From a virus (taxonomy: Duplodnaviria; Caudoviricetes), in IMG/VR virus record IMGVR_UViG_3300048890_000088, positions 1 through 39,091 of that record: a DNA stretch of 39,091 nt; one strand, written 5' to 3'. The position numbers were made by a program, and so were the translations under genes. Under the pieces are notes generated by a model. The model made no database searches, was not told the DNA's origin, and saw only the letters and a program-made list of their open reading frames with translations. This document shows positions 1 to 39,091 of this stretch, in pieces (the stretch's first letter is position 1; the number at the start of each line of letters is the position of its first letter).

Positions 1-127
1 CCTGGTGCATGGCCTTCGTGAGCGCGGTGGGGCGCCAGGCGGTCGGGGCCGCGTGGCCCCTGCCCCGGCTCGCCGGCGTGCAGCTGATGGTCGACCACGC
101 GAACGCGGCCGGGCTCCTGCCGGTGGA
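1..127. repeat. 127-bp terminal direct repeat (copy 1); circular-assembly overlap
   Basis: 1-127 is identical to 38965-39091. 127 is a common assembler k-mer, and the endolysin ORF reads through the junction. Confidence 0.95.
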
Positions 128-356
128 GACGCCGGCGATCGGGGATCTCCTGGTGGTCTGGCATGAGGAGCAGCAGCGGTTCGCGCACGTCGGCGTGGTG
201 GCCGAGGTGAAGGACGGCCTCTTCCGTTCCTGGGAGGGGAACACGAACGACAACGGGTCCCGCGAGGGGACCCGGGTGCTGCTGCAGAAGCCGCGGCGGC
301 CTGGGCCGCGGTTCAAGTTCGTCCGGTGGACCGCACTGCTGAAGGAGGTTGCCTAA
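1..356 (+). CDS. CHAP-domain endolysin, 3' part (gene starts at GTG 38820 and wraps the origin)
   Basis: Joined protein has PWCMAFV, HVGVV and EGNTN, the CHAP Cys/His motifs; it follows holin-like genes. Confidence 0.85.
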   Translation, partial: WCMAFVSAVGRQAVGAAWPLPRLAGVQLMVDHANAAGLLPVETPAIGDLLVVWHEEQQRFAHVGVVAEVKDGLFRSWEGNTNDNGSREGTRVLLQKPRRPGPRFKFVRWTALLKEVA

Positions 357-637
357 TGGCATGGCGACTCCGGTGGTTCAAGGGCGATGGAGATGCCGAC
401 GCCGCGGGGTGGCCGGTGGGGGGAATCTGGCGCAGCGGTGCTTCCCTGCTCCTTATCACACCAGTCGGCCTCGCCGACATCGCGCGATGGGAACAGATCG
501 GTCCGGATGAGAAGCTCACCACCCGTCCCTCGATCCTCTGTCAGGGTGAGGGTGTCTATCACGGCTATGTCACCGACGGCGTCCTCACGGACGACTGCGA
601 GGGCCGACTCTTTCCCGATCATCCGGCGACCGCATGA
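356..637 (+). CDS. small protein, DUF6527-like
   Basis: ATG overlaps the endolysin TAA; motif LTTRPSIL...YHGYVTDG. Confidence 0.5.
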   Translation: MAWRLRWFKGDGDADAAGWPVGGIWRSGASLLLITPVGLADIARWEQIGPDEKLTTRPSILCQGEGVYHGYVTDGVLTDDCEGRLFPDHPATA

Positions 638-1194
638 AATATCTCCGGCTCTTCGCCCTCGGGGCCTTCGCCGGCGTCGCGCTGCTGCTCTGGCTGCAGG
701 TCCGCTCGAGCGCCACCCAGTCTCAGGAGATCGCCTCGCTCGAGTCCTGGGAGAAGGGCGCCCGACTGCGGCTCTCGCATGCCCTCACGCGGCAGAGCAC
801 GACGCGCGAGGCCGCGGTCTCCCTTCGCGGACGCTACCGGGCCTTCCACGCCGATACGCTCTATCTACCGGGGAAGCCGGACACTGTCTGCGTCCCGATC
901 GCTCTGATCGCCACCGCCGATTCGACGATCAATGCCGACAGCACCGACCAAACCGCGAGCGACACTGTCGTCGCGATCGCGGTTCCCCTGGCCGACTCGG
1001 CCGACCGTAGGGCGGACCTTGAGAAGAAGCGAGCAAAGGGACCGTGGATCCGCTCCTATGCTGAGCTGCTCTTCTCGGGATCCCATCCCCGCGCGGCCGC
1101 ACAGCTCGAGGCGGGCCGCCGGCTCTCTGCCGTGGCCCGCCTCGAGATCGACACCCTGCCCCGGATCTGGGCAGGGCTCCGCTATCAGTTCTAG
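634..1194 (+). CDS. envelope protein at the spanin position (N-terminal hydrophobic helix, C-terminal beta-strands ending WAGLRYQF)
   Basis: ATGA overlap; last gene of the lysis cassette; hydrophobic residues 5-23; terminal aromatic beta-signal. Confidence 0.6.
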   Translation: MKYLRLFALGAFAGVALLLWLQVRSSATQSQEIASLESWEKGARLRLSHALTRQSTTREAAVSLRGRYRAFHADTLYLPGKPDTVCVPIALIATADSTINADSTDQTASDTVVAIAVPLADSADRRADLEKKRAKGPWIRSYAELLFSGSHPRAAAQLEAGRRLSAVARLEIDTLPRIWAGLRYQF

Positions 1195-1195
1195 T

Positions 1196-1537
1196 CTATC
1201 GCGTAAGCCAGGCACACCGAACCATGGTGATCTTACTGACAAGGGCCTCCCACCCCGGGGGGCCGTTTGCTTCGTCAATCTCCCCTATTTCAATCTTGAC
1301 GAGCTCCTCCACGTCGAAGGTGAACCAGCGCCTTCGGTACTCCTCACGGAAGCTCTCGTCGGTGACCCATGCCACCAGCCCCCATCCTACTTCACCGTCT
1401 ACGAGCCCCCGCCCTAGGCAATACGGCTTCACTTCGAAGGGACCCCAATCGTATGAGAACCGCAACAGACGACGCTCTCTGATTGCCTGACAGAGCAAGT
1501 CGAGCGTGGGCGGATCCGCGGGGCGCTCGGGCCTCAC
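1196..1537 (-). CDS. stand-alone WYL-domain protein (~113 aa)
   Basis: GTG overlaps the upstream TGA. AIRERRLLRFSY...EVKPYCL...WGLVAW...RRWFTFDVEEL matches the WYL pattern (AI..r..l.f.Y; v.Py.l; wYL.a; r.Fr.dri). Confidence 0.7.
   Translation of the reverse strand: MRPERPADPPTLDLLCQAIRERRLLRFSYDWGPFEVKPYCLGRGLVDGEVGWGLVAWVTDESFREEYRRRWFTFDVEELVKIEIGEIDEANGPPGWEALVSKITMVRCAWLTR
1244..1272 (+). terminator. putative intrinsic terminator of the late/lysis transcript
   Basis: GGCCTCCC-ACCCC-GGGGGGCC hairpin followed by GTTTGCTT. Confidence 0.4.
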
Positions 1538-1947
1538 CTGCGGACGGCCGCGGTCCGGCTCCTGCGTGCCCCCGCAGTCGCCGGCTTCCCGCTCGGGGCG
1601 CGGTTGTCCAGATAGTTCCACAGCTCTGCGCGCGCGACCTCCCACTGGCGGCCGCGCTTCCGGCCCTTCAGGCGCTTCGCGTTCAGGAGCACCCGGAGGG
1701 TCGCCGTCGCGATCCCCCCTTCCTTCGCCGCCTCGGCCAGAGTGAGCCACTCGGCCGCAGGCAGGGCGTTCTCGACCACGTCGCGCCCGTACTTGGCACT
1801 CGCCTCGAGGATCTCGACGCTGAGCAGGCGCCCGCTCGCATCGAGATCGGCGAACGTGTCGGGGGTGAGCTCGATGGTCTGCGTCGAGCGGCCGGCGAGC
1901 AGCTCGACGTTCAGGGCGTCGGTCTCGGGGTCATAGGTCAGCTTCAT
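1534..1947 (-). CDS. DUF2283 antitoxin-like domain fused to an HTH_17 (excisionase-like) DNA-binding domain
   Basis: MKLTYDPETDALNVEL...DLDASGRLLSVEILEAS is DUF2283-like; WLTLAEAA..GIATATLRVL...LKGRKRGRQWEV is HTH_17-like. Confidence 0.85.
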   Translation of the reverse strand: MKLTYDPETDALNVELLAGRSTQTIELTPDTFADLDASGRLLSVEILEASAKYGRDVVENALPAAEWLTLAEAAKEGGIATATLRVLLNAKRLKGRKRGRQWEVARAELWNYLDNRAPSGKPATAGARRSRTAAVRR

Positions 1948-2008
1948 GGGGATCACTCCTCGGCCCAGGGGCCGTTGATGCGTCAGAGAAAGTAAGGCGG
2001 GGGCGGGG

Positions 2009-2251
2009 TTACCGCCCCCCCCTGATGTGGGCCGAGATGACTTTGATGTAGCTGGGGTGGTCCGCGAAGATGACTCGGAGGTGCCGCCCTTTCACTTCCC
2101 CGTCGACTTGCCACCGCTGGGAGACGGCGGTCCAGAGGTTCTTGGTTGGGGTGGCGGTGTGGAGCAGCCACCGGATGTCCGCGCGGTTGATGCCGCGCTC
2201 CTTGAGCTTCTTGGCGGTGTGGTCACCGATGAGGATTGGCTTGGTCGTCAT
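2009..2251 (-). CDS. DUF4258-family putative RNase toxin (BECR/RelE-like fold)
   Basis: HTAKKLKERGINRADI...GRHLRVIF...IKVISA; directly upstream of DUF2283. Confidence 0.75.
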   Translation of the reverse strand: MTTKPILIGDHTAKKLKERGINRADIRWLLHTATPTKNLWTAVSQRWQVDGEVKGRHLRVIFADHPSYIKVISAHIRGGR

Positions 2252-2257
2252 GGATTG

Positions 2258-2285
2258 AATATAAGCGATAGCGTTTATATGTCAA
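2258..2285 (-). promoter_or_regulatory. sigma70-type promoter of the toxin operon with an operator-like inverted repeat; probably leaderless mRNA
   Basis: TTGACA-16-TATATT, then 6 nt to the ATG; TATAAGCG-ATAG-CGTTTATA at 2260-2279. Confidence 0.7.
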
Positions 2286-2298
2286 TACCCCTAGAATA

Positions 2299-2402
2299 GG
2301 GGGTGTACGGCCGTTGGCCCCGAGAATAGCGGCTCAGCCGACCTCCCCCGGCTTTTGTTCGGGAACGGCCGGACGGCATCGTGCCGAACTCCGGATACCC
2401 CC
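2299..2402 (+). ncRNA. candidate structured small RNA
   Basis: Nested stems GGGGGTGT/ATACCCCC, CGGCCGTT/AACGGCCG, CCCGAG/TTCGGG, AGCCG/CGGCT and CGGCA/TGCCG; -10 TAGAAT at 2292-2297. Confidence 0.45.
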
Positions 2403-2430
2403 ACCCTTGACGCCCTCCCCTTCGAGGCCC

Positions 2431-2469
2431 AAGATAAAGGCGCGCGGCGGCAACTTGCCACCACGCGCC
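2431..2469 (-). terminator. intrinsic terminator downstream of tRNA-Thr
   Basis: Minus strand GGCGCGTGGTGGCAA-G-TTGCCGCCGCGCGCC (G-U pairs favour this strand), followed by TTTATCTT. Confidence 0.75.
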
Positions 2470-2482
2470 CCAGGTTAGTATG

Positions 2483-2556
2483 TGCCCCCGGCGGGATTTG
2501 AACCCGCATCCTTCACTTTACGAGAGTGGCGCTCGATCCAATCGAGCTGCGGGGGC
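2483..2556 (-). tRNA. tRNA-Thr(CGT), atypical D-arm, CCA not encoded
   Basis: Acceptor GCCCCCG/CGGGGGC; D-stem GCTC/GAGC; anticodon loop CT-CGT-AA; T-arm GCGGG-TTCAAAT-CCCGC. Confidence 0.8.
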
Positions 2557-2605
2557 GGGGAGGACCAGGGAGTCGCGCAAACGTCTCCCTGATCCAACTA
2601 CAGGA

Positions 2606-2620
2606 CTACGGCGGCTTCAT
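2606..2620 (-). other. SD-led minigene Met-Lys-Pro-Pro-stop
   Basis: AAAGGAGGT (2627-2635), 6-nt spacer, ATG AAG CCG CCG TAG. Confidence 0.5.
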
Positions 2621-2987
2621 CGTCGTACCTCCTTTCAGGTTCCAGGAGTCACCGCCGGACCGTCCCCACGGTCATCCCGGCGGTGATTCCGCTTTCAGGT
2701 ATCTGTTACCTGACACTCTATCTATGTCGGTCTGGACTGGCGGTCAAGCATCAAGAGTGCTAACCGAAAATTCCCCTTCTCCCTCTTGACGTGAGCAGAA
2801 CAGGCCAACTACCGGCAATTACCCGAACATTTGACCCCCTCGACTGCCACCATCCTAAGCTCACGATGGACACGTTCCCACGCAACGTTCGGTCTAACCC
2901 AGCAACGGTGCGGCGGATTGGGGTTTAGGTCACAAAAGTGACATGGCCCCCGATCTCGGGGGCCATAGGGTCCAACTGGGCAGGGTA

Positions 2988-3209
2988 TCAGCGCCCGGGA
3001 GGCACCATCACCGCGACGCGGTACATAACCCAGCCCAAACCGAGCGAGATCAGCCCTGGAACCAGAAAGACACCAACGTTCACGAGCAAACCGAAACCTC
3101 CGACCCCGCCCCGCAGGTCGCCGTTCCCTTGCATCCCTGCAAGGTTGCCCACACCCAAGATGACCAGCACCATCCCCATTAGCAGGAAGCCTGCGGCCGC
3201 GTAGCGCAT
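2988..3209 (-). CDS. small two-TM membrane protein
   Basis: MRYAAAGFLLMGMVLVILGV...GLLVNVGVFLVPGLISLGLGWVMY; SD GGAGAG. Confidence 0.7.
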   Translation of the reverse strand: MRYAAAGFLLMGMVLVILGVGNLAGMQGNGDLRGGVGGFGLLVNVGVFLVPGLISLGLGWVMYRVAVMVPPGR

Positions 3210-3222
3210 TCGGTCTCTCCGT

Positions 3223-3543
3223 TCAGCGAAGTGGGTGCTGGAGGTCCGCCGCTTCGGCGGCCGCGCGGGCGAACCCATCCGGATCGTCCGGGCCCAGCTC
3301 GAGCTGGTACTCGTCGACCGGGACGCCGGGCTGACCCGGCTCGAGGAGGACCAGCCATTGGCGGCGCTCGCCGTCGAGGGAACGCAACTCCCCCTCGACC
3401 GGATACCAGACTCCGGCCGCGAGGGGGTAGGGACAGGCTCCGACCGCCTCCGATCGGAGGCGCACGGTCGTCGGATAGAGATGCCCTGGCACGGGAATGC
3501 CACCGCCATCGACCAGGCGGAGGTGCTCCGGGTTCAGGGTCAC
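3223..3543 (-). CDS. hypothetical protein
   Basis: GTG overlaps the lipoprotein stop; protein-like composition. Confidence 0.55.
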   Translation of the reverse strand: MTLNPEHLRLVDGGGIPVPGHLYPTTVRLRSEAVGACPYPLAAGVWYPVEGELRSLDGERRQWLVLLEPGQPGVPVDEYQLELGPDDPDGFARAAAEAADLQHPLR

Positions 3544-4598
3544 GGCGCGATGACCAGTGTGCCGCTGACAGGCGTCGCGGTCCAGCCAGGCTGGAGCGCG
3601 GTGTAGTGCCACCCTGCCCCATCGCGGCTCGCGAGCGCGAGCTCCATCCAGCCCCATGTCGGCAGCCACATCCAGATATGGCGCGGATCCTCGAGGTCGG
3701 AGCAGCCGCCGACGGTCGTCCCAACCCCGCCGCTCGAGAGCGTGTCGACGGCCGCGGTCGACCGAATGACCCAGAGCGCAGTGGCGTGATAGATCATTGC
3801 AGGAGCGCTCGCGCCATCACAGGACTGCACCCCGGAGGTGATGTAGGCCCCGCTCACGCTCCAGGTGGTGTCCCCGATCGTCGCCTGCCAGGTGTAGGTG
3901 CCCTTTGGAGCATGGACCATCAGCGTCAGCGTATCGGAGCCGAGCACGAAGCGTTGCCGCCCGGGCACGGAGGCCGTCGCCCGCCAGGATCCCGCGACCA
4001 GCTGCGCGCCGAGGCTATCGATCCCGGCGACGCCGGCCACGGCGATCGGGTTGTTGAAAGCGTCGTGCGCGAAGACTGGCAGGGTGACCACCGAGTCGCC
4101 GGTCACGCGGAGCGTGTCGACCGCGAAGCCCTGGGCGGTGATCGGCCCTGGGATCCCCGTTGCGCAGACCTGTGCAAACGTCAGGGGCTCCCCGGTCTCC
4201 TGATCGACGGCGCGGGCCTCGAGGCACTGCGCGCCGGCCGTCGGACCCAGCGTCCAGAGCTCCTGCGCCCGCCCAATCGAGTCGGTGAGCGCCGCCCCTG
4301 CGAAGACATGCCCACCACCCGAGACGACCACGAAATTCACGAGCTGCCCTGGCACGGGGACCGGCGTACCGCCGGCCGCCTCGGCGCGCGAGCCAGTCGG
4401 CCCGGGGGTCGTATCGAGGACCTGGATGCGGATCGCGGTCGGGAGCTGCTGGCCGACCGTATCGACCTGGCCACTCCCCTGCAGGATCTCGACCCGTGAG
4501 GCCACCAGCTTCGGAGGAGTCGTCGAGGGCCCGGTGGAATCTGAACCGCAGCCGGCGAGGAGCGCGGCCGCCAAGACGAAGAGGTATCGGTGGGTCAT
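3540..4598 (-). CDS. Ig-like (Big-type) surface lipoprotein
   Basis: Lipobox LLAG-C; ILQGSGQVDTVGQQLPTAIRIQV...VPGQLVNFVV..GGG...TDSIGRAQELWTLG is an Ig-like repeat. Confidence 0.8.
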   Translation of the reverse strand: MTHRYLFVLAAALLAGCGSDSTGPSTTPPKLVASRVEILQGSGQVDTVGQQLPTAIRIQVLDTTPGPTGSRAEAAGGTPVPVPGQLVNFVVVSGGGHVFAGAALTDSIGRAQELWTLGPTAGAQCLEARAVDQETGEPLTFAQVCATGIPGPITAQGFAVDTLRVTGDSVVTLPVFAHDAFNNPIAVAGVAGIDSLGAQLVAGSWRATASVPGRQRFVLGSDTLTLMVHAPKGTYTWQATIGDTTWSVSGAYITSGVQSCDGASAPAMIYHATALWVIRSTAAVDTLSSGGVGTTVGGCSDLEDPRHIWMWLPTWGWMELALASRDGAGWHYTALQPGWTATPVSGTLVIAP

Positions 4599-4695
4599 TT
4601 GACGGTCCGTTGATGGTGGTCGCCTACCTTGCCGCCCCCGGCTTGCCGGGTCGAGTACTCCCCCCTAACTTCGGCATTCCTTCGGGAGGAATCCA

Positions 4696-4995
4696 GTGCC
4701 CCTGCTCCCCTACACCTTTTTGGTCACCCGCGACGACCCTGGCTTCAAGCTCAAGGCGGGCGATCGGGTCATTCTGGACTTCGCCAACCTGGAGGCGCCA
4801 ATCGTCTCGGTGCGCTCCCTCGGCCGGAACTATGGGCGCCTCCTCAACCTCCTCGAGCTCGGGATCCTCGTCGACCTCAACGAGGACCAGCCCGTCGAAC
4901 CGCTCCGTCAGGCTGCGCTCGCTTCTTCCCTGCCCCCCGCTCGGATGCCAGGTGCGCGGCCAATCCGCGCCCGCCGCCGGCTGCACCTCCTGTGA
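4696..4995 (+). CDS. hypothetical protein convergent with the repressor
   Basis: SD GGGAGGA before the GTG; candidate promoter TTGCCG-17-TAACTT. Confidence 0.55.
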   Translation: MPLLPYTFLVTRDDPGFKLKAGDRVILDFANLEAPIVSVRSLGRNYGRLLNLLELGILVDLNEDQPVEPLRQAALASSLPPARMPGARPIRARRRLHLL

Positions 4996-5332
4996 CCTCC
5001 GCCCGGAGCTGATCCAGGACCTCGGCCATCCGGCCCGCGGCCTCGAGCATCCCCGCCCGCACCGCCTCCGCATCGCCGACCGCCCGGGCCTTCCGCCGGG
5101 TCAGCGCCCACTCGAGCTCGATCCCCAGCAGCTGACAGGTGCGTAGCCCCGCGTAGGCGTCCGGGATCACTCCCATCGTCATCCAGTTGCTGACCGTCGT
5201 CTGGGAGATCACGACGCCGGCGGCTTTCAAATGCGCCCGGAGCTCCTGCTGGTTCCAGCCCCGGTCCTGCAGCCCTTGGATCAGCGCGAGCCGCCAGTGC
5301 TCGCGCACGTGGGGGTGCTCAATGCGTGCCAT
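4877..5332 (-). CDS. XRE-family HTH repressor (CI-like, no visible S24 peptidase domain)
   Basis: RGWNQQELRAHL...ISQTTVSNW...IP HTH; divergent from the early operon. Confidence 0.8.
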   Translation of the reverse strand: MARIEHPHVREHWRLALIQGLQDRGWNQQELRAHLKAAGVVISQTTVSNWMTMGVIPDAYAGLRTCQLLGIELEWALTRRKARAVGDAEAVRAGMLEAAGRMAEVLDQLRAEVTGGAAGGGRGLAAHLASERGAGKKRAQPDGAVRRAGPR

Positions 5333-5346
5333 GTCGGGCCCCTCTC

Positions 5347-5388
5347 TTGACAGGATACCAGTTATCGGATATCATACCCGGTAACTTG
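5347..5388 (+). promoter_or_regulatory. rightward early promoter with an overlapping operator pair
   Basis: TTGACA (5347-5352)-17-TATCAT (5370-5375); inverted motif CAGTTATCGG...CCGGTAACTT. Confidence 0.8.
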
Positions 5389-5409
5389 ATGCGCCTCAGG
5401 GGCCCCGGA

Positions 5410-5850
5410 ATGGAACCCACAATGATGCCTGCAGCCCAGCCGGCCAACCGGCAGAAGAACGCTTCGGCGGATGTTCGGCTGGGTTTGGCGATCGGGGTGA
5501 AGCCCGCGACCGCCAAGAACATGCTGACCGACCCGGAGACGGGCCTCTGTCATCGCACCAAAGAGGCCCTCGCGGCCCTGCGACTGGCCGGCAACGACGC
5601 GGAGGCGGCGCGGTGGGTCGCGGAGTTCCATGCGGCCGCCACCTTGAACGACGGGGCGGGTCCCCTGCTCGCGCAGCTGCAGCCGAAGGCGATCGCCGAT
5701 GCCGGCGAGGATTGCGCCCGCCAGGCCTTCCTGCTCAACCCCAGCGCGGTCACCGCGAAGCGCCTGGTCTCGGAACTCTGGCTCGAGGCCGGTCGCGCCG
5801 AGCTGACCGCCTTAGCGCTCGAGGCCGAATACGGCCTCCGGGGCCGCTGA
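5410..5850 (+). CDS. Cro/CII-like regulator (putative)
   Basis: First gene opposite the repressor; LGLAIGVKPATAKNML is HTH-like. Confidence 0.5.
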   Translation: MEPTMMPAAQPANRQKNASADVRLGLAIGVKPATAKNMLTDPETGLCHRTKEALAALRLAGNDAEAARWVAEFHAAATLNDGAGPLLAQLQPKAIADAGEDCARQAFLLNPSAVTAKRLVSELWLEAGRAELTALALEAEYGLRGR

Positions 5851-5898
5851 CACCCCCTCTATAGATACCAGTTATCCGGTAACCGGAAAAGGAGCCTG

Positions 5899-6099
5899 AT
5901 GCCCGCCACCGCCGCCGTCGCCCAGCTGGGCCTGAAAGTCGATCCCCAGGAGAAGGGCCTGGTCGACCAGTACCTCGCCCACCGCAACGTCGAGCGGGCG
6001 GCGCAGGGCCAGCCGAAGCAATACGCGCAGGACCACCTCCGCGGCGCGTGGGCGAAGCTCGTCCGCGAGGCGCAGCAGTGGAAGGCGCAGCAGAAGTAG
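5899..6099 (+). CDS. hypothetical protein
   Basis: SD AAGGAG; 66 aa. Confidence 0.65.
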   Translation: MPATAAVAQLGLKVDPQEKGLVDQYLAHRNVERAAQGQPKQYAQDHLRGAWAKLVREAQQWKAQQK

Positions 6100-6131
6100 A
6101 CCGCATCACCAACCCCCTCGAGGAGGGACAG

Positions 6132-7064
6132 ATGGGAGCCGCAGTCATTCCTGAAGCTGAGATGGGCACGAAGGGCGCCGCCGGCGATGTGCCGGCCGGT
6201 GAAGTGGGAACGAGGAGCGCCGCACTGACGCTCGTCCGGCCGATCGCGAAGCCGGCCGCGCTGGTCGAGGCGCACAAGGAAGTCTCCGCGTTGATCACCA
6301 GCGCGCTCGAGAAGGACCGGGATTATGGGACCGTCCCGGGCACCAACAAGCCGACCCTCCTGAAGCCGGGCGCGGAACGTCTCGCCTTGGCCTTCGGCGC
6401 GGTGCCGAAGTATGCGATCATCGAGCAGGAGCGCGAGCACGACCGCGTCGTCCCCTGGACGAAGCAGAAGAAGGTGTGGGCGAACAAGTTCAAGGGCGAT
6501 CGCGAGTTCACTCTGCAGGCGGAATCCGGGGAGAGCCTCGGCCTCTACCGCTACGTGGTCCGCTGCACCCTGATCCAGCGCGAGACCGACATCGTGCTGG
6601 GCGAGGGGATCGCGTCCTGCTCGACCCTCGAGTCGAAGTACATCGATCGGCCGCGCGATTGCGAGAACACCACGCTCAAGATGGCCCAGAAGCGGGCCTT
6701 CGTCGCTGCGGTGCTCAACGCCTTCGCGCTCTCCGATCGCTTCACCCAGGACATGGAGGAGGCCGGGCCCGCCGCCGCGGCAGCCGAGCATGAGGACGGG
6801 AAGCCGAAGACGGCCCTCGAGATCGCGCTCGACATCCCGCTGCCCGGGAAGGAGACCTCCTTCGATGGGTGGGGGCGGAAGCCCCTGGGTTCGGTGCCGT
6901 CGAAGGTGATGAAGCAGGCGAAGGAGTGGCTGGAGAAGAAGCTCGCGAGCGGGCCCGCCGACGCGTATACCGACGCGAACAAGATGGCGGTGGACGGCAT
7001 GCGGTTGATCCTCGAGGCGCGAAGCACCGGCGAACTCGATGAGCCGCCGACCAAGGAGGGCTGA
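6132..7064 (+). CDS. single-strand annealing/recombination protein (putative)
   Basis: KPTLLKPGAERL and NTTLKMAQKRAFVAAVL motifs of phage SSAP-like proteins; next to Gp157. Confidence 0.65.
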   Translation: MGAAVIPEAEMGTKGAAGDVPAGEVGTRSAALTLVRPIAKPAALVEAHKEVSALITSALEKDRDYGTVPGTNKPTLLKPGAERLALAFGAVPKYAIIEQEREHDRVVPWTKQKKVWANKFKGDREFTLQAESGESLGLYRYVVRCTLIQRETDIVLGEGIASCSTLESKYIDRPRDCENTTLKMAQKRAFVAAVLNAFALSDRFTQDMEEAGPAAAAAEHEDGKPKTALEIALDIPLPGKETSFDGWGRKPLGSVPSKVMKQAKEWLEKKLASGPADAYTDANKMAVDGMRLILEARSTGELDEPPTKEG

Positions 7065-7067
7065 GCG

Positions 7068-7604
7068 ATGTCCGGTCTCAAGCTCTATGAGGCGACCGAA
7101 GCCCTCCTGATCGTCGACCAGTGGCTCGACGAGCACGCGGACGAGATCATCGCGAGCGGTGGGGAGCTGCCGCCCGAGCTGGCCGCGCTGATCGACCAGG
7201 CGACGGCCCAGCTCGAGGGGAAGGTCGAGAAGGTGGCGCTCAAGGTCCGCGAGCTGCTCGCGACCGCCGGCGCGATCGCACTCGAGGCGAAGCGCCTCAG
7301 CCAGCGGGCGAAGGCCTGCGAGAATGGAGCCGAAGCGCTTAAGGCCTACCTCAAGGCGCAGCTCGAGCGCGCCGGCCAGACCAAGGTCGAGGGGAAGCTC
7401 GCCACCGTCGCGATCCAGAAGAACGGCCAGCCGAGCATCACCGTCACGAAGCCGATCGAGGATCTGCCGAAGGCCTGGCGGTACCAGCCGCCGGCACCGG
7501 CACCGATACTCAATCGGGACGCTGTCCTCACCGCGCTCAAGTTGGGGGAGGAGATCCCGGAGGGGATCGAGGTCGTCACCGGGACGCACCTGAGGATCCG
7601 CTGA
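7068..7604 (+). CDS. siphovirus Gp157-family protein
   Basis: LYE...coiled coil...EAKRLSQRAK...LKAYL...KN..PS...IPEGIEVVTGTHLRIR. Confidence 0.85.
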   Translation: MSGLKLYEATEALLIVDQWLDEHADEIIASGGELPPELAALIDQATAQLEGKVEKVALKVRELLATAGAIALEAKRLSQRAKACENGAEALKAYLKAQLERAGQTKVEGKLATVAIQKNGQPSITVTKPIEDLPKAWRYQPPAPAPILNRDAVLTALKLGEEIPEGIEVVTGTHLRIR

Positions 7605-7808
7605 ATGAGCTACGTCTACAAGCAAACCGAGAAGCACGAATTCGGCGGGCTCTGGACAGTCGGATTCTATGATCCGTCGGGGAAGTGGGAACCCGAGAGC
7701 GACCACGATGCCCCGAATAAGGCCGCGCAGCGGGTGGCCTACCTCAATGGTCGCAACCCTTCCCTCGACGAGGCGCTGAATAGCGGCGATGGGAGCTACC
7801 GGCCATGA
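7605..7808 (+). CDS. hypothetical protein
   Basis: Abuts Gp157; LWTVGFYDPSGKWEPESDH...VAYLNG. Confidence 0.7.
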   Translation: MSYVYKQTEKHEFGGLWTVGFYDPSGKWEPESDHDAPNKAAQRVAYLNGRNPSLDEALNSGDGSYRP

Positions 7809-8068
7809 TGGACCGCCAGCGCGCCTATCTCCCCTGCCCCGGCAACAACTGCGGGGATCCGATCGAGGTCACCCTCGAGCGCGAGGCGCCCGCCGCTGCG
7901 CCCCTGGTCGTCGTGGCCGAGGTGCGTTGTCGCAGCTGCGGCGCGCATGTAGGGCTCGGTCACGGCTGGCCGGCGGCGGAGCGGCAGGCCGCCTGGGACG
8001 AATCCCAGGCGCACGAGGCGATGGACGGGGCGGTCGCCATCGCCGGCGAAATCGACGAGGAATGCTGA
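7805..8068 (+). CDS. zinc-ribbon protein
   Basis: CPGNNC...CRSC; ATGA overlap. Confidence 0.6.
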   Translation: MMDRQRAYLPCPGNNCGDPIEVTLEREAPAAAPLVVVAEVRCRSCGAHVGLGHGWPAAERQAAWDESQAHEAMDGAVAIAGEIDEEC

Positions 8069-8418
8069 TGCACCGCGTCGGCACGGAGGACCTCGCGCTC
8101 TGGTTCCCCCCGGTGGAGAAGGCCCTCCCCCTCCCCGCCGCGCCGGCCGAGACCAGTCAGGCGGCGGCGAAGGCCTTCGGGTCGAAGGCCGGCACCGCGC
8201 GAGCCATCGTCTATCGCGCCATCCTCGAGCATCGGGGTCTGGCCTGCTTCCAGATCGAAGCGATCACCGACCTCGACGGCAACACGGTGCGGCCGCGGCT
8301 CCGCGAGCTCGAGCAGCTCGCGATGATCCACAAGAGCCCGACGCGGACCGCGCTCACCGCGGCGGGACTCGCGGCGGCGGTCTATGAGGTCGGTCCGCCC
8401 CCTTCGCCGTGCCCGTAA
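8068..8418 (+). CDS. winged-HTH protein
   Basis: TSQAAA...GLACFQIEAITDLDGNTVRPRLREL. Confidence 0.65.
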   Translation: MHRVGTEDLALWFPPVEKALPLPAAPAETSQAAAKAFGSKAGTARAIVYRAILEHRGLACFQIEAITDLDGNTVRPRLRELEQLAMIHKSPTRTALTAAGLAAAVYEVGPPPSPCP

Positions 8419-8513
8419 ATATCCGATAGCTGGTCAAACATCCGATAACTTGTTACTGTGGTGGCCCCGAGCCCGTGGCGGTTCGGAGGCCTCCCAACTC
8501 CCCAGGTGATCTA

Positions 8514-8732
8514 GTGCGCGAGTCGCACCCGCAGATCCAGCGCATCATCCGCATGAAGGCGACCGCCGGTCCCGGGTCGCCCACCTACCTCCTCAACGGG
8601 TTCGCGATCGCCGCCTGGCTCCGCCGCGCGGCCGAGACCGCCCTCGAGTCGAAGACCGACCACATCCTCATCACGCCGGGCCTGGCACGCCGGATCGCCG
8701 ACCATCTCGACCAGGCCGAGGGGAAGGCGTGA
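8514..8732 (+). CDS. hypothetical protein
   Basis: SD AGGTGA before the GTG; stop overlaps the next start. Confidence 0.5.
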   Translation: MRESHPQIQRIIRMKATAGPGSPTYLLNGFAIAAWLRRAAETALESKTDHILITPGLARRIADHLDQAEGKA

Positions 8733-9259
8733 GGATCCGGTCGGTCGTGCCCGCCTTCTGGTCGAGCCTCACGCTGGCGAAGGTGCCGCGGGATCTGCGG
8801 CTCTTCTTCATCGGCCTCTGGAGTTGCGCGGATGACCACGGCCGCGGGCTGGCGGATCCGCGCTGGCTCAAGGGGCAGCTCTTCTCCTTCGACGACGATG
8901 TGACGCCGGCGACGCTACAGGACTGGCTCACGCGCCTCGCGGATCCCGACGTGGGCGTGATCGTGCTCTACCAGGGACCGAAGGGCCAGCCGCTCTATGC
9001 GATCCCCTCCTGGGCGGAACATCAGCACCCCCAGAAGAAGAAGGACTCGAAGCTCCCGTCGCCTCCGGACGGTAGCGGTCTGTCCGCGTCCTCCCCCCAA
9101 GGCGATACCGGTACGGTACGCGTACCGGAGGCGTCCAGCGACCGCCCGCCGCGGGCGCGCGAACGGTCCGGTCAGGAGGGGAGGGGAAAGGAGAGGAGTG
9201 GAGAGGGAGGGAATTCCCCTTCTAGGGGGAATTCCCTCCCTCGGGGGAAGGCGCCATGA
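8729..9259 (+). CDS. phage replication initiator-like protein (N-terminal wHTH)
   Basis: RIRSVVPAFW...RLFFIGLWSCADDHGR...WAEHQ; upstream of DnaB. Confidence 0.75.
   Translation: MRIRSVVPAFWSSLTLAKVPRDLRLFFIGLWSCADDHGRGLADPRWLKGQLFSFDDDVTPATLQDWLTRLADPDVGVIVLYQGPKGQPLYAIPSWAEHQHPQKKKDSKLPSPPDGSGLSASSPQGDTGTVRVPEASSDRPPRARERSGQEGRGKERSGEGGNSPSRGNSLPRGKAP
9203..9242. repeat. perfect 17-bp inverted repeat; candidate replication-origin element
   Basis: GAGGGAGGGAATTCCCC-TTCTAG-GGGGAATTCCCTCCCTC. Confidence 0.85.
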
Positions 9260-10644
9260 CGACCAACCCGCTCATCAACCCCGAAGCCGAGCAGGCGGTC
9301 CTCGGCTCGCTGATGCTCGACGCCACGCCGGCGCAGATCCACGAGGTGCGCGAGCTCCTGCCGATCCCCGAATGCTTCGGGGCTCCGGAACGCCGGCACG
9401 CCTTCACCGCCATCACGGGCCTCCTCGAGCGCGGGATCGCGGCCGACCCGCTCACGGTCCGTGACGAGCTCCAGCGGCTGGGCCTGCCGTTCGACGTGGA
9501 CCAGATCGCACAGTTCGCCGACATGGCACCAACCGCGGCGAACCTGGTCTTTCACGCGAAGATCGTCCGCGAGCGCTGGCTGCGCCGCACCCTCGCGAGC
9601 CAGGGGGAGAAGGCGAAGCTGCGCGCCCATGCGCTCGATGTCGAGATCAACGACGCCTTCGCGGAGACGGTGACGGAGCTGGTCCAGGCGGCCGCGCCGG
9701 CGCTGGTGTCGGCGCCGCGGCCGGCGAAGGCGTTCCTGTGGGAGGCGATGGAGCGGATCGAGGAGCGCGAGCGGAAGGGGGAGACCCTCGAGGGCCTCAC
9801 CTCGGGGCTCCGGGATCTCGATCGCCACCTCGGCGGCTGGATGCCCGGGCGCCTGGTGATCGGCGCCGCGCGGCCCGGCGTCGGCAAGACCTCCTTCGCG
9901 ATCCACGCGGCGGTCGCGGCCGCGGCGAAGGGGAAGCCGGTCTACTTCAACTCGCTCGAGATGAGCGAGCCCGAGCTCGTCGAGCGGATGATCGCAGCCG
10001 AGGCGGGTGTCTCGCTGCGCCGGCTCGGCGTGAAGAAGCTGAGCGACCAGGACTACACCGAGCTCGCCCGCGCGGCCGGCTTCCTCGCCACGCTCCCGAT
10101 CACCCTCGACACCACGGCCGAGACGCCGGGGCAGCTGCGGCTCGCGCTGCAGCACTTCCTGAGTCTCCACCCCGAGGGGATCGGCCTCGTCGTCGTCGAC
10201 TACCTCGGGCTGATGCGCTGGCCGTCGAAGGTCGACAACCGGAACGACGAGGTCGGGAAGCTCACGCGCGCCCTCAAGCGCGACGTGGCCCGCGCCCTCA
10301 ACGTGCCGGTCCTCTGTCTGGCGCAGCTCTCGCGGAAGAGCGTCGAGACGGGGAAGCCGCGGCCGCCCCAGCTCGCCGACCTCCGCGACTCCGGGAACAT
10401 CGAGCAGGACGCCGACCAGGTCGTGATGCTGCACTACGCCGGCCACGAGTCGGGTCTCGGCTCGACGGAGGAGTGGGGCTCGTCGCGGCGGACCGAGGTC
10501 TACATCCGCAAGAACCGCCACGGCCCCGGCGGGCAATTCGACGCGTACTACGACCGGCCGACCGGCCAGTGGAACGACTTCGTCGCCGAGCCGGTGTACG
10601 ACGACGCCCCGGTCGACCAGGGGGAGCGGGAGTTCAGCCGATGA
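9256..10644 (+). CDS. dnaB: replicative DNA helicase
   Basis: EAEQAVLGSL, AARPGVGKT, SLEMS, VVDYL, AQLSR, DLRDSGNIEQDAD, KNRHG. Confidence 0.97.
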   Translation: MTTNPLINPEAEQAVLGSLMLDATPAQIHEVRELLPIPECFGAPERRHAFTAITGLLERGIAADPLTVRDELQRLGLPFDVDQIAQFADMAPTAANLVFHAKIVRERWLRRTLASQGEKAKLRAHALDVEINDAFAETVTELVQAAAPALVSAPRPAKAFLWEAMERIEERERKGETLEGLTSGLRDLDRHLGGWMPGRLVIGAARPGVGKTSFAIHAAVAAAAKGKPVYFNSLEMSEPELVERMIAAEAGVSLRRLGVKKLSDQDYTELARAAGFLATLPITLDTTAETPGQLRLALQHFLSLHPEGIGLVVVDYLGLMRWPSKVDNRNDEVGKLTRALKRDVARALNVPVLCLAQLSRKSVETGKPRPPQLADLRDSGNIEQDADQVVMLHYAGHESGLGSTEEWGSSRRTEVYIRKNRHGPGGQFDAYYDRPTGQWNDFVAEPVYDDAPVDQGEREFSR

Positions 10645-10823
10645 CCACCGACCCCCGGTTTGTCCGCGAATGCGGCCGCAAGAAGAAGTACCCGACCGAA
10701 GCGATCGCGGAGAAGGTCCGGCAGGACTGTGAGGTCCTCCGCGGCGTCGCGCTCCGCATCTACCAGTGCTCCTGGTGCCAGCTCTGGCACCTCTCGTCCT
10801 CTCCCCGCGCCCAGGACTCCTGA
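10641..10823 (+). CDS. small Cys/His zinc-binding phage protein
   Basis: C..KKKY...IYQCSWCQLWHLSS. Confidence 0.7.
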   Translation: MTTDPRFVRECGRKKKYPTEAIAEKVRQDCEVLRGVALRIYQCSWCQLWHLSSSPRAQDS

Positions 10824-11257
10824 TGGCTGTCACCCTGACCCCCGAGCAACGCGCCTACGGTCTCCGGTCGGTCCGCCTCTTCGCGAAGCTGGCCGCGGAT
10901 GCGAAGAAGAAGCTCGCGATCCTCGGCCTCGAGTTCCCGAAACTCGACGGGATCGAGCAGCACACGCACGACCTCGAGGTGAAGCTCGACCCGATGCACA
11001 CCGACGTGTGCACCCTGGCCGATGATCTCACCGGCGAGACCCGGCTCCTGGCTGACTGCTGCAGCGTGTTGCTGGCGGCGCTGGGCAAGGTCGAGGAGAA
11101 GCAGCTCGAGCTCGGCGTCGCGATCCCGGCCGACACGCGGCGGGTCGAGAACCAGCTCCGCGACATGATCGACATGCTGCGCGGCCAGCGCAGCCTCCCC
11201 TTCCCTGCCCCCGCCGCGGAGCCCGCCCGTCGCGGCCGCGCCACCTCCCGCACCTGA
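10823..11257 (+). CDS. hypothetical protein
   Basis: TGATG overlap; helical composition. Confidence 0.65.
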   Translation: MAVTLTPEQRAYGLRSVRLFAKLAADAKKKLAILGLEFPKLDGIEQHTHDLEVKLDPMHTDVCTLADDLTGETRLLADCCSVLLAALGKVEEKQLELGVAIPADTRRVENQLRDMIDMLRGQRSLPFPAPAAEPARRGRATSRT

Positions 11258-11267
11258 GGATCGACCT

Positions 11268-12851
11268 ATGACCGCCACCATGTTGCCCAGCTTCGCCACG
11301 ATCGCGCTGGGATTGCTCGAGCCCCACCCCGACAACCGGAAGCACTTCGACAAGGCGAAACTCGAGGAGCTGACGAAGAGCATCCGCGCCTCGGGGGTCT
11401 TCACGCCGCTCCTGGTCCGCGAGCTGCCAGAGGAGCGGTATCAGATCATCGCCGGCGCCCGCCGCTGGAAGGCGGCGCGGGAGGCGGGACTCAAGGAGCT
11501 GCCCTGCATCGTCCGCGAACTCAGCGACGACGAGGCCCTCGAGCTGCTCCTGACCGAGAACCTGCAGCGCGAGGATCCGCACCCCCTCGAGGAGGCGGCC
11601 ACGTTCCAGGTATGGCTCGATCGGACCGGCCACGATGTGAATGGGCTCGCGGCGAAGATCGGGAAGTCGACGGGGTACATCTACCAGCGGCTCCAGCTGC
11701 AGAAGCTCTCGGAGGCGGGGAAGAAGATGCTCTGGGCCGAGGAGCTCCCGCTCACCTTGGCGCTGCTGCTCTCGCGGGAACCGGAAGAGACGCAGAAGAA
11801 GCATCTCGGCGACATGAAGCGGAATATGCAGTGGCGCGGCCTGCCGACGACCGCTGATCTCGCGCACGACCTGCAGCGCGATCACAAGGATCTCGCGAAG
11901 GCGCCTTTCTCGACCAACGCCGCTGACCTGGTGACCGAGGCGGGCTCCTGCGTCGCTTGTCCCAAGCGGACCGGGTTCACCCCCGAGCTGTTCCCGGAGA
12001 TCGCGAAGAAGGCCGACCACTGCACCGATGGCACCTGCTTCGCGAAGAAGTTGCAGGCCCACCTCAAGCTCGAGGAGACCCGGCTGCGGAAGGAGCATCC
12101 GGATCTGGTCCTGGTGAGTCAGGGATACAACCACCAGCCGCCGAAGGTGGGACAGCCGATCACCCAACCCCACTGGCGGACGGTGAAGAAGACCGAGAAG
12201 GGCGCGAAGCTCGCCCTCCACGTCGACGGCGAGCATATCGGCACCACCGGCTGGGTTGAGGTCGGGAAGGCGAAGGCCCACAGCAGCAGCCGCGCACCGG
12301 CGCGGCCCAGCGCGCCGAAGGTCGACGCGGCGAAGAATCGCCTCAAGCTGCGCCGGGAGATCGGGCGTCGCGGGGCGGTGCTGAAGGCGGTGCTCGACGC
12401 GGTCGGCAAGGGGATCGATCGTCACCTCCTGCTCCCGATCCTCGCGCTCGAGCTGGACATGGGCGATTTCGACCGGGACCATTTCGCTGCGGTGACCGGC
12501 CTCAAGGTGCGGCCTGGCTTCCGGCCCACGGCGTCCACGCTCGACAAACTCACCGAGCGTCAGCTCAACCAGATCATGGTGCTCCTCGATGTGCAGTTCG
12601 AGCCATCGAGTGCCGCCGGCACCCCCGCGCACCTCCTGGCGCTCGCGAAGACCGTGAAGGTGAACGCGAAGGCCGTGGGTGATCGCTTCGAGGTCGCCGC
12701 CAAGAAGGGACTCAAGGGGGTCTGCTCGAAGTGCCTCTGCACCACTTCGGACCCGTGCGACAAGGGCGGGAAGAAGTGCGCCTGGACGAACAAGGACGAG
12801 ACGCTCTGCTCGCACTGCGCCGACGCTCCGAAGAAGGCGGCGAAGAAGTGA
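11268..12851 (+). CDS. ParB/RepB/Spo0J-family protein with long Cys-containing C-terminus
   Basis: LEELTKSIRASGVFTPLLVR, IIAGARRWKAA, ENLQREDPHPLEEA, HTH, C..CPKR..C....CF. Confidence 0.9.
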   Translation: MTATMLPSFATIALGLLEPHPDNRKHFDKAKLEELTKSIRASGVFTPLLVRELPEERYQIIAGARRWKAAREAGLKELPCIVRELSDDEALELLLTENLQREDPHPLEEAATFQVWLDRTGHDVNGLAAKIGKSTGYIYQRLQLQKLSEAGKKMLWAEELPLTLALLLSREPEETQKKHLGDMKRNMQWRGLPTTADLAHDLQRDHKDLAKAPFSTNAADLVTEAGSCVACPKRTGFTPELFPEIAKKADHCTDGTCFAKKLQAHLKLEETRLRKEHPDLVLVSQGYNHQPPKVGQPITQPHWRTVKKTEKGAKLALHVDGEHIGTTGWVEVGKAKAHSSSRAPARPSAPKVDAAKNRLKLRREIGRRGAVLKAVLDAVGKGIDRHLLLPILALELDMGDFDRDHFAAVTGLKVRPGFRPTASTLDKLTERQLNQIMVLLDVQFEPSSAAGTPAHLLALAKTVKVNAKAVGDRFEVAAKKGLKGVCSKCLCTTSDPCDKGGKKCAWTNKDETLCSHCADAPKKAAKK

Positions 12852-13045
12852 CCGCCGTCGCCGTCAACCCCGAGCGGGCGCGGGCGCCGCTCGCACGGGA
12901 GCTCTGCCGGATCGCGCGCGCCGCGATCCAGTCCGCCCGCGAGCTGCGGGACCTAGGGGAGTCGACCCAGGCCTCGCGGTGCGTCCAGGAGGCTCGGCGC
13001 ATGGTGCGCTTGGCCCGTTTCCACGATCGCCAGGAGCCCCGCTGA
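12848..13045 (+). CDS. hypothetical protein
   Basis: Overlapping start and stop at both ends. Confidence 0.5.
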   Translation: MTAVAVNPERARAPLARELCRIARAAIQSARELRDLGESTQASRCVQEARRMVRLARFHDRQEPR

Positions 13046-13519
13046 TGCGTCACATCACGAAGACCCATGCCGTCGAGGCCTTCCGCCTCCCACCGAAGCA
13101 CACCCTCGCGCTGACCGTCGACGGGAAGAAGACGCTCGGCGCCTCCGGCGACTGGCTCACGGTGACCGCCACGCATCCTCCGGCGTTCGCGCTCGTGAGC
13201 GACAAGGAGTTCGCCGACCGCTTCGAGCCGGCCGTTGTCGCCGTGGAGCTCGGTGCGCCGACGAAGCGCCGCGGCCCCGCGCCAGGGAAGACACGGGGGG
13301 GGGGGCAGGCCCCGGAAAGCGATCGCGCCGCCGCCCACCGTCCGCTCGCGCGTCGGCAGCAGCGTCCGCGCGCTCCCGAGTGAGGCGCTTCGCGAGGACT
13401 GCCGGAAGCTCTTCGAGGAGGACGGCATGAAGCTCAGTGAGATCGCGACCAAGAAGGGCGTGAAATACGCGACGCTCTACAACTGGCGCACCAACGGCGA
13501 CTGGGAGCCGAAGGCATGA
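13045..13519 (+). pseudogene. HTH DNA-binding gene split by a G11 tract (phase-variable or frameshifted)
   Basis: The frame from 13045 joins the GRPRK...LSEIATKKGVKYATLYNW HTH frame if 13295-13305 is G10. Confidence 0.65.
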
Positions 13520-13770
13520 ACCACCTCCGCACGATCCGGGCGGCGAGCGAGGACCTCGCCGCCGCCGAGAAGGGCCTCCGCGAGGGGAGCGGGAAGCTCG
13601 AGCTGAGCCCCGACTCCGCCCTGCCGGACCTGGTGAAGGCCCGGAACGCCGCCCTGCGCGCCGCCTCGGCGCTCGACCTCCTCGCGCGGACCGCCCTGGA
13701 CGGGATCCGCCCGGCCTCCGCGGCCGAGCTCAGCCGGATGGCGATCCTTGGCGCGCACGCAGGGAACTGA
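13516..13770 (+). CDS. hypothetical protein
   Basis: Overlapping start and stop at both ends. Confidence 0.55.
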   Translation: MNHLRTIRAASEDLAAAEKGLREGSGKLELSPDSALPDLVKARNAALRAASALDLLARTALDGIRPASAAELSRMAILGAHAGN

Positions 13771-16927: not shown

Positions 16928-17001
16928 CCTGTCACGAACCCGATAACTTGACACCGGCCCCCGCCCTGCCGAGGTTGGGACGGGCCCTCCAGGAGGAGCA
17001 C

Positions 17002-38185: not shown

Positions 38186-38503
38186 ATGGCTGAAGGCGAG
38201 ATGGTCCCGCGGAACGAGTTCAACAACGCGATGCACGCCTACCGGCGCAGCCTCGAGGATCTCAAGGACAGCCTCACCGAGCGGCTTACCCGCATCGAGG
38301 CGAAGCAGGACAGTGGGGCGGCCGACAAGCTCACCGAGGCCGAGGAGCGCGGTCGGACGAAGCAGCGTCTCGACGACCTCGAGAGGCGCGAGGCGGCCCG
38401 CGATCGGAAGGTCTGGGCGCTGATCCTCCTCGGGCTCACCGGGGCCCTGGCGGGTCTCAAGGTCTGGCTCGCCTCGGTGTTCGCCCGCGGAGGCGCTCCA
38501 TGA
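38186..38503 (+). CDS. coiled-coil protein with C-terminal TM (holin/antiholin-like)
   Basis: SD AAAGGAGG; TM VWALILLGLTGALAGLKVWL. Confidence 0.6.
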   Translation: MAEGEMVPRNEFNNAMHAYRRSLEDLKDSLTERLTRIEAKQDSGAADKLTEAEERGRTKQRLDDLERREAARDRKVWALILLGLTGALAGLKVWLASVFARGGAP

Positions 38504-38823
38504 AGCTGCCTTGGCTCCTCCAGCTCGTCTGGGATCCCCCGACCGCTCTGGATATGCGCGATCGCCGCGGCCGGGTCGACCACGGGAAGGTGATCGGCTT
38601 CGTCGGCTTCCTGGCGATGTACATCCTGATCTGGTTCGGGCTCCTGCCATCGATCGGGCATACGATCGCGCTCCTCTCGGCGATCTTCGGCTGGGCGGCG
38701 TGGCGGACCTTCCTGGCGTCCAAGGCGGTGACCAGCTCCGAGACGGTCACCCGCGATGTGAAGGAAGTCCTCCAGCGCCGGGCGGTCGACGGCGACGGCG
38801 TCACCTCGGAGCCCAGCCCGTGA
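38500..38823 (+). CDS. holin (putative)
   Basis: Two TM segments and a charged C-terminus; directly before the endolysin. Confidence 0.6.
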   Translation: MKLPWLLQLVWDPPTALDMRDRRGRVDHGKVIGFVGFLAMYILIWFGLLPSIGHTIALLSAIFGWAAWRTFLASKAVTSSETVTRDVKEVLQRRAVDGDGVTSEPSP

Positions 38824-39091
38824 CCGTCACGATCGCGGATCCCATCGCGGCGCTCCTGGCCGAGTGCGCGCGGTACGCCAAGGTGGTCGAGGCCACCCCG
38901 AACCGGGGGGTCGAGATCGACTACTGGGTCAGGGAGGCCGGGCTGGATCCCGCCGGCCGCTTCCCCTGGTGCATGGCCTTCGTGAGCGCGGTGGGGCGCC
39001 AGGCGGTCGGGGCCGCGTGGCCCCTGCCCCGGCTCGCCGGCGTGCAGCTGATGGTCGACCACGCGAACGCGGCCGGGCTCCTGCCGGTGGA
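38820..39091 (+). CDS. CHAP-domain endolysin, 5' part (continues to 356)
   Basis: GTG overlaps the holin stop; EATPNRGVEIDYW...PWCMAFV. Confidence 0.85.
   Translation, partial: MTVTIADPIAALLAECARYAKVVEATPNRGVEIDYWVREAGLDPAGRFPWCMAFVSAVGRQAVGAAWPLPRLAGVQLMVDHANAAGLLPV
38965..39091. repeat. 127-bp terminal direct repeat (copy 2)
   Basis: Identical to 1-127. Confidence 0.95.

Follow-up and report, generated by a model that had tools for sequence, protein, structure and literature searches.

The window analysed here, IMG/VR record IMGVR_UViG_3300048890_000088 with a length of 39,091 nucleotides, is the circular 38,964-bp genome of a siphophage from soil. A lysis cassette of five genes begins at 38186, wraps over the window ends and finishes with the candidate gene considered in this study (Table 1). 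Two holin-like genes are followed by a CHAP endolysin, a DUF6527-like gene and the candidate, with neighbours overlapping by 1-4 bases at four start/stop overlaps. The first-pass annotation had described the candidate as the last lysis gene, and it does end this five-gene overlapping chain; a terminator-like hairpin follows at 1244-1264, past which the genes lie on the opposite strand. Terminator-like sites in positions 1-3000 number 6, against 2.1 +/- 1.7 in shuffled sequences. The lysis context of the candidate is known from one genome alone. No obvious ribosome-binding site was found upstream of the candidate, and its GC content by codon position is 0.67/0.53/0.84 in a genome of 68.9% GC.

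Table 1. Positions of the features discussed in the text, in window coordinates
Feature	Position	Strand	Basis
Direct terminal repeat, 127 nt	1..127, identical to 38965-39091	.	sequence comparison
Holin- or antiholin-like, 105 aa; coiled coil and C-terminal hydrophobic segment	38186..38503	+	weak matches to phrog_689 holin (E 0.087) and XhlA (E 0.12)
Holin-like, 107 aa, two hydrophobic segments	38500..38823	+	phrog_785 holin E 0.095, weak
CHAP endolysin, 166 aa, GTG start at 38820, spans the circular junction	38820..39091 and 1..356	+	PF05257, phrog_9589
DUF6527/BubE-like small protein, overlaps endolysin stop and candidate start	356..637	+	PF20137 E 0.012 (below cut-off); phrog_33338 E 1.4e-6
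Candidate single-gene spanin, 186 aa	634..1194	+	ORF; 14 homologues at 27-70% identity
Hydrophobic helix at the N-terminus (aa 4-21), putative inner-membrane anchor predicted not to be cleaved	643..696	+	hydropathy, conservation
Stalk predicted to be periplasmic: a helix up to aa 69, a linker (70-88) with Cys86 as its single cysteine and a second helix (89-135)	697..1038	+	AlphaFold2
Four amphipathic beta-strands (aa 139-148, 151-161, 164-172 and 176-186) ending G-x-x-Y-x-F, predicted outer-membrane anchor	1039..1191	+	AlphaFold2, conservation
Intrinsic-terminator-like hairpin closing the late operon	1244..1274	+	consensus match only
Ig-like lipoprotein, 352 aa, LAGC lipobox; only credible lipoprotein gene in genome	3540-4598	-	lipobox scan

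In the endolysin, the 3' part (1..356) matches PF05257 with an E value of 1.7e-5 (25.7 bits against a cut-off of 26) and the phrog_9589 endolysin family with an E value of 1e-10, and the 5' part (38820..39091) matches phrog_9589 at E 0.031. The DUF6527-like protein carries Ser59 and His69 at a spacing equal to that of S92 and H102 in BubE, reported as a Ser-His protease (bioRxiv 10.1101/2024.11.21.623953); it holds just two cysteines and therefore does not contain a C4 zinc finger. This protein may serve as a small protease during lysis.

The ends of the window are classed as direct terminal repeats by IMG/VR, the CheckV completeness estimate for the record is 62%, and the circle is closed by one contig of metagenome run X1; the stretch is present in two soil metagenome runs, one of which may be where it comes from. 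Pfam searches identified a terminase, a DUF4055 portal, a P22-type coat protein, a tail tube, Dit-like and tail proteins, DnaB, ParB and a large serine recombinase, and from this gene set we take the phage to be a siphophage that is probably temperate. The recombinase (Resolvase, Recombinase and zinc ribbon domains; 14542-16503, plus strand) lies among the middle genes, and alignment of contigs from runs X1 and X2 to positions 1-20000 gave no convincing integration joint. A tRNA-Thr(cgt) occupies 2482-2556 on the minus strand and a tRNA-Met(cat) 25857-25933 on the plus strand, the latter directly after the coat gene. Just downstream of the late operon, a BrnT/DUF4258-like ORF (2009-2251, minus strand, E 0.001) is followed by an ORF with DUF2283 and HTH_17 matches (1534-1956, minus strand), and the two resemble a toxin-antitoxin pair by sequence; a WYL-like ORF (E 0.009), also on the minus strand, ends at 1196.

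Among 25 matches to the Ig-like lipoprotein of the phage, the sole one named to an organism is a Gemmatimonadetes genome (E 3.7e-9, coverage 16%), and a Gemmatimonadota genus has been described as Gram-negative with ~69% GC (PMC11271474). The host probably belongs to the Gemmatimonadota, a weak assignment made from one lipoprotein match and a GC content of 69%, and is likely diderm. Against this assignment, Streptomyces phages account for 21 of the 26 annotated-phage records matched by the endolysin (33-38% identity), the terminase matches Proteobacteria phages at 46%, and a capsid scan that returned 67 loci at 26-35% identity, mostly Clostridia prophages (~30%), did not identify a host.

The candidate itself matches no Pfam or PHROG family, and its best NCBIfam match reaches only E 0.19. 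A search of 5.8 billion and 1.84 billion proteins, with length limits of 0.55-1.75 times the query that are far wider than the size range observed, returned 14 homologues of 179-191 aa, and a profile search brought no additional ones. Counts of 15 given below refer to the query together with these homologues. At E values up to 1, all 15 members match 0 Pfam families, and their PHROG matches are weak, the best being an unnamed family at E 0.008. Six residues are invariant across the family (D96, V167, R169, E171, G181 and F186).

The N-terminal hydrophobic helix noted at first pass spans residues 4-23, with a best 18-residue Kyte-Doolittle (KD) mean of 2.16, and an equivalent stretch (KD 1.64-2.35) is present in 15/15 sequences. 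The first-pass annotation had raised the question of an anchor versus cleavage at SSA. Small/small sites were compared across the family by a simple rule rather than by SignalP. The query has two such sites, VRS/SA and SSA/TQ; some site occurs in 6/15 sequences at differing positions, the SSA site is seen in the query alone, and none of the seven closest homologues has a site of this kind. Thus no signal-peptidase site is conserved across the 15 sequences. The N-terminus, on the other hand, is strongly conserved: in five homologues (P0003-P0007), identity to the query is 76-100% over residues 1-21 and 82-86% over the beta-domain, against 25-29% over the stalk. Such conservation is unusual for a discarded signal peptide. 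As the N-terminus is strongly conserved and lacks a conserved peptidase site, the helix more likely serves as an uncleaved anchor than as a signal peptide that is removed, and is probably retained in the mature protein.

The stalk between helix and beta-domain keeps a length of 107-115 residues in 15/15 sequences although its sequence drifts, and a spacer of constant length between two conserved ends is what would be expected of a periplasm-spanning tether. Cysteines beyond the transmembrane helix are found in 13/15 members, with a Cx6C motif in 10/15 and one linker cysteine in the query; periplasmic cysteines have been reported in 507/528 two-component spanins (PMC6139136). No cysteine precedes residue 86 in the query, and no lipobox cysteine is conserved in the 15 sequences.

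A lipoprotein partner was sought in two ways. A six-frame scan of 1-1500 found no lipobox ORF, in agreement with the first-pass statement that the overlapping frames hold no lipobox o-spanin. A looser scan of the whole circle, covering 1606 start codons, gave seven matches, none within the cassette; six are short or off-frame ORFs over other genes or regions, and one is a credible gene, the Ig-like lipoprotein, which lies 2.3 kb from the candidate on the opposite strand and outside the cassette. It has a homologue at 74% identity, located on a contig equal in length to that of the candidate homologue P0003, and is a probable lysogenic-conversion gene. A separate lipoprotein spanin, which would have spoken against the proposal, was thus not found in the cassette, and the whole-circle scan showed no small lipoprotein in the genome.

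Conservation of gene order around the homologues was approached by several routes. Profile scans of viral, metagenome and genome contigs found no related locus, nor did endolysin, tail, holin and lipoprotein scans of viral contigs or a tblastn search of P0005 and P0011 against 50,697 phage records. A degenerate C-terminal DNA pattern had 6 viral matches, none homologous by HMM, and the one inspected was off-frame within another gene. The 28 metagenome loci found via the lipoprotein contained no candidate homologue (best E 0.15), and five genomes examined gave no match to the candidate. Four of the homologues P0002-P0015 are on contigs of 21-39 kb. For two candidate homologues the longest contig equals in length that of lipoprotein homologues (38,856 and 21,054 bases), which hints at sibling phages.

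We then considered the predicted structure. An AlphaFold2 model built from the 15 sequences (mean pLDDT 71.7, pTM 0.33) shows a helix at residues 2-69, an extended low-confidence segment at 70-88, a second helix at 89-135 and strands at 139-148, 151-161, 164-172 and 176-184, and the last 65 residues modelled alone give the same four strands (pLDDT 85.6, pTM 0.58). The model matches the helical middle and the four C-terminal strands ending in Phe that had been read from the sequence, and its helix-linker-helix stalk is Rz-like. Hydrophobicity with a period of 3.5 peaks in helix 2 (0.87) and is weak in helix 1 (0.37), and by simple arithmetic the stalk would reach ~14-20 nm end to end.

The strands of the tail are strongly two-faced. 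Their outward face is 90% hydrophobic and 1% charged, the former figure arising partly by construction because the in/out parity was chosen per strand from the alignment. The 17 inward positions (255 alignment cells) are 47% D/E/K/R and 24% G/A/S, and include R140, E144, R153, Q157, E159, R169, E171, R177, R183 and Q185. Two features of the tail speak against the spanin reading, namely an outward face rich in Ala (30% G/A/S) and short strands of 9-11 residues. The last strand reads I-W-A-G-L-R-Y-Q-F. Under the beta-signal spacing rule, in which positions are counted back from the C-terminus, Phe occupies -1 in 15/15 sequences and the full pattern with Gly at -6 is present in 12/15. Among 240 six-frame ORFs of >=60 aa, 6 end in F or W, and the candidate alone adds hydrophobic residues at -3/-5/-7/-9 and the Gly at -6. 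The outer-membrane-type C-terminus first suggested by the terminal Phe is therefore conserved in the family and unique among the ORFs of this genome. A conserved Gly in the last strand has been described before (PMC3093317).

Structure comparisons point, with limited weight, to the anchors of trimeric autotransporters. Searching the PDB with the full model by Foldseek, the best rows were the Hia anchor (E 0.013) and the AtaA anchor (E 0.027), none reaching E 0.001; when the query was cut down to the tail, proteins named as YadA-like anchors or adhesins made up 9 of the 12 best viral rows (E 0.003-0.009, TMq ~0.6). VIA superposed the tail on the AtaA anchor with an rmsd of 1.9 A over 51 residues at Z 5.0, but no tail Z score exceeds 5.5, which lies in the range expected by chance, and AtaA is tied with soluble sheets and pore-forming proteins/gasdermins. 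The predicted fold of the tail is thus consistent with an autotransporter anchor, but weakly so. With the full model, VIA returned generic coiled coils (Z at most 10.5), and a PDB sequence search gave a best E of 0.14. Complex prediction with 3 copies of residues 85-186 and a 15-row alignment scored 0.18 and 0.00 against a mark of 0.42, the partner fold being uncertain, and so weighs neither for nor against a trimer.

The top viral fold match of the full model, A0A6B9LGU8 (E 2.1e-4, TMq 0.24), was identified by its 180-aa length as tant8-1 gp019; this protein has no membrane helix, is encoded far from the lysis genes and was dismissed as a chance match. In the atlas, look-alikes by language-model features (0.92-0.94) are unnamed clusters that are 71-100% viral, some of which carry DUF6808 (PF20647) on 12-15% of their members. 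The candidate has no PF20647 match, the likeness to DUF6808 is one of language-model features only, and no paper on DUF6808 was found in the full-text literature covered. The three best atlas matches to the tail alone are viral proteins of 71-109 aa, which may either be fragments or represent a two-gene version in which the outer-membrane partner is encoded separately.

How does the candidate compare with known systems? Like T1 gp11 (PMC6139136), it is a single gene placed last in the lysis cassette, in this one genome, and one chain is predicted to sit in both membranes. As described there, gp11 has an N-terminal outer-membrane lipid anchor, a beta-rich periplasmic part and a C-terminal inner-membrane helix, whereas the candidate has no lipobox, its helix is N-terminal, its stalk is helical and its outer anchor is predicted to be made of beta-strands. 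C-terminal 19-residue KD windows are at most 0.3, with strands rather than a transmembrane helix predicted, and no sequence similarity to gp11 was found. With lambda Rz, for which a CC1-linker-CC2 layout has been described (PMC6139136), it shares a membrane helix at the N-terminus, a pair of helices with a linker between them and periplasmic cysteines. It is predicted to be a type II protein with a helical coiled-coil domain, as far as cleavage can be judged by the simple rule, but it has a four-strand tail in place of a linked Rz1-type lipoprotein gene, and the best link to the Rz-like spanin family phrog_89 is E 0.24 in 1/15 sequences.

The anchors of YadA, Hia (3emo/2gr8) and AtaA (9vnj) share with the candidate a helix followed by four antiparallel strands and a terminal aromatic residue (rmsd 1.9-2.7 A over 51-53 residues). 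In trimeric autotransporters, four strands per chain form a 12-stranded barrel whose small lumen residues, mostly Gly/Ala, let the passenger through (PMC3297439, PMC7247746). The candidate has an Arg/Glu-rich lumen face, no adhesin head and an N-terminal helix that is probably uncleaved, and no PF03895 (YadA_anchor) match was obtained for any of the 15 members at E up to 1 or elsewhere in the genome. Given an Arg/Glu-rich lumen with only 24% G/A/S, we conclude that it is not an autotransporter, and the direct analogy drawn at first pass is not supported. A further likeness, by description, is to the TamB/TamA system (PMC12800296), in which an inner-membrane-anchored, periplasm-spanning chain also reaches an outer-membrane barrel with its last strand; TamB, the partner of TamA, is a large lipid conduit built as a beta-helix, whereas the candidate is a short helical phage protein. 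By analogy, the candidate would work most like a fused Rz in which Rz1 is replaced by an autotransporter-style anchor.

The balance of the evidence leans, by a little, towards a lipid-free single-chain spanin with a topology reversed relative to gp11, which would form an oligomeric mini-barrel in the outer membrane and drive fusion after removal of the wall. This reading draws on the cassette position, the four overlaps, the terminator-like hairpin and the lack of a small lipoprotein. It is also favoured by a 115-residue stalk within the 62-300 range of two-component spanins and by the fact that, in the close group, both ends of the protein are more conserved than the stalk between them. In the proposed sequence of events, the protein would be made late by translational coupling behind the holins and endolysin, as the gene overlaps suggest, and inserted uncleaved by Sec in an N-in/C-out orientation, consistent with the conserved N-terminus. 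The G-x-x-Y-x-F tail may then be taken up by BAM or a paralogue, and 2-4 chains would close an 8- to 16-stranded barrel with a lumen plugged by Arg/Glu side chains. Nothing could then be exported through so filled a lumen and the stalk would be kept in the periplasm, which helps the spanin reading. Since a charged lumen frees the number of chains, a disulfide-linked dimer of eight strands appears as plausible as a trimer, and the stalk cysteines would link chains as in Rz. Once the endolysin has removed the wall, the stalk would fold back and draw the membranes together until they fuse, by analogy to the Rz/Rz1 proposal. For an anchor in the inner membrane combined with a last strand that engages an Omp85 barrel, TamB offers a precedent (PMC12800296).

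Four other readings have to be weighed. We attach a small, though not trivial, probability to a protein of the cell surface or outer membrane that loses its signal peptide by cleavage and, although encoded at the end of the late operon, has no lysis role, i.e., an autotransporter-like protein or a Lom-like conversion or superinfection-exclusion factor. The phage is probably temperate, judging from its serine recombinase, and carries another envelope moron, the Ig-like lipoprotein; lambda Lom and Bor are precedents for phage-encoded envelope morons of this kind. The tail is predicted to fold like the YadA, Hia and AtaA anchors and the query offers a possible peptidase site at SSA/TQ, but the lumen positions are bulky and charged, a head or adhesin domain is absent, and the seven closest homologues lack a peptidase site while the N-terminal 21 residues are far better kept than the stalk in the five homologues compared above. 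Moreover, such a protein would leave the phage without any spanin.

It is rather unlikely that the candidate acts in lysis as an i-spanin-like protein whose tail pairs with host BamA/TamA or another outer-membrane protein and builds no barrel of its own. The last strand of TamB makes a hybrid barrel with TamA, its C-terminal domain folding inside (PMC12800296), a tethered four-strand substrate may resist release, and the charged face of the tail could pack on a protein. Against this, the other face of all four strands is only 1% charged, which fits lipid contact along the whole sheet, and four strands with short turns are a known unit of self-assembling barrels.

We consider it improbable that the candidate is a conventional i-spanin whose periplasmic beta-domain is soluble and whose o-spanin escaped notice; that partner would be a protein with a non-canonical lipobox, the Ig-like lipoprotein or the DUF6527 protein. 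In favour of this reading, i-spanins are likewise characterised by type II topology, coiled coils and cysteines, separated o-spanins up to ~1 kb away exist (PMC6139136), and lipoboxes of the host phylum may escape the rule applied here. The loose all-frame scan was nevertheless empty across the cassette, the lipoprotein is a distant Ig-like protein of 352 aa on the other strand, no signal peptide was seen by eye in the DUF6527 ORF, and the invariant terminal Phe and Gly would be left unexplained. Finally, a virion or non-envelope protein (a coiled-coil fibre capped by a trimerising beta-sheet), or a phage of a monoderm host needing no spanin, is very improbable: tail fibres or gpJ straight-fibre domains are among the viral fold rows, and the endolysin and capsid have relatives in monoderm phages, but the N-terminal hydrophobic helix is kept throughout the family, the gene sits after the endolysin rather than among the tail genes, and the C-terminus is of outer-membrane type.

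In the survey of Kongari 2018 (PMC6139136), 91/677 phage genomes are without a spanin, their route across the outer membrane is left open, and it is remarked that 'an OMP could act as an o-spanin'. The first-pass claim of a new class is in this light somewhat too strong, as the idea of an outer-membrane protein serving as o-spanin was already voiced there; what stands is that the candidate lacks defining features of both the gp11 type and the Rz pair. In the literature covered (titles and the beginnings of abstracts; the SpaninDB supplements may list similar proteins), a beta-barrel-anchored spanin is not described.

We compared four cultured Bacteroidota phages, B124-14, P2559S, P2559Y and tant8-1, three of which are listed as spanin-less (PMC6139136). 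In all four, a protein with an N-terminal hydrophobic stretch is encoded directly after the endolysin; by eye, a similar four-strand tail is present in P2559Y_0023 only. This product of gene 23 of Croceibacter phage P2559Y (KC688701, 22998-23621), a phage listed as spanin-less, is 207 aa long and encoded directly after the amidase. A hydrophobic stretch at its N-terminus and four alternating strands towards its C-terminus can be made out by eye; it ends in ...FDLKK and carries a possible lipobox Cys25. It shows no profile similarity to the candidate (hhalign probability 0.8%) and no other relative among 50,697 phage records, and is a possible cultured test case. In Bacteroides phage B124-14, also listed as spanin-less, ORF016 (HE608841, 6765-7370) matches DUF6549 (E 8.5e-29) and lies directly after an M15 endolysin; it has an N-terminal hydrophobic helix and a coiled coil, and no terminal aromatic residue.

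It is tempting to speculate, with somewhat less than even confidence, that an inner-membrane helix joined to a self-assembling, BAM-inserted oligomeric mini-barrel represents a third spanin architecture, present in many unrelated families of phages with non-Proteobacteria hosts. A 2025 survey defines spanins by helix and lipobox filters only (PMC12596118), and annotation on that basis would overlook a lipid-free type. If the proposal is correct, it would explain part of the 'spanin-less' phages and provide a search rule, i.e., an N-terminal helix, a stalk of ~110 residues and a beta-signal, encoded beside an endolysin, and the 186-residue gene would be directly testable in the standard lambda Rz/Rz1-null assay. 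It would also represent a minimal fusogen anchored by a beta-barrel, and would imply that a tether in the inner membrane does not keep BAM from building chains into an oligomeric barrel, these chains being a natural BAM substrate that then drives membrane fusion. The outer membrane would in this case be broken by a putative route, predicted to operate without a lipid anchor.
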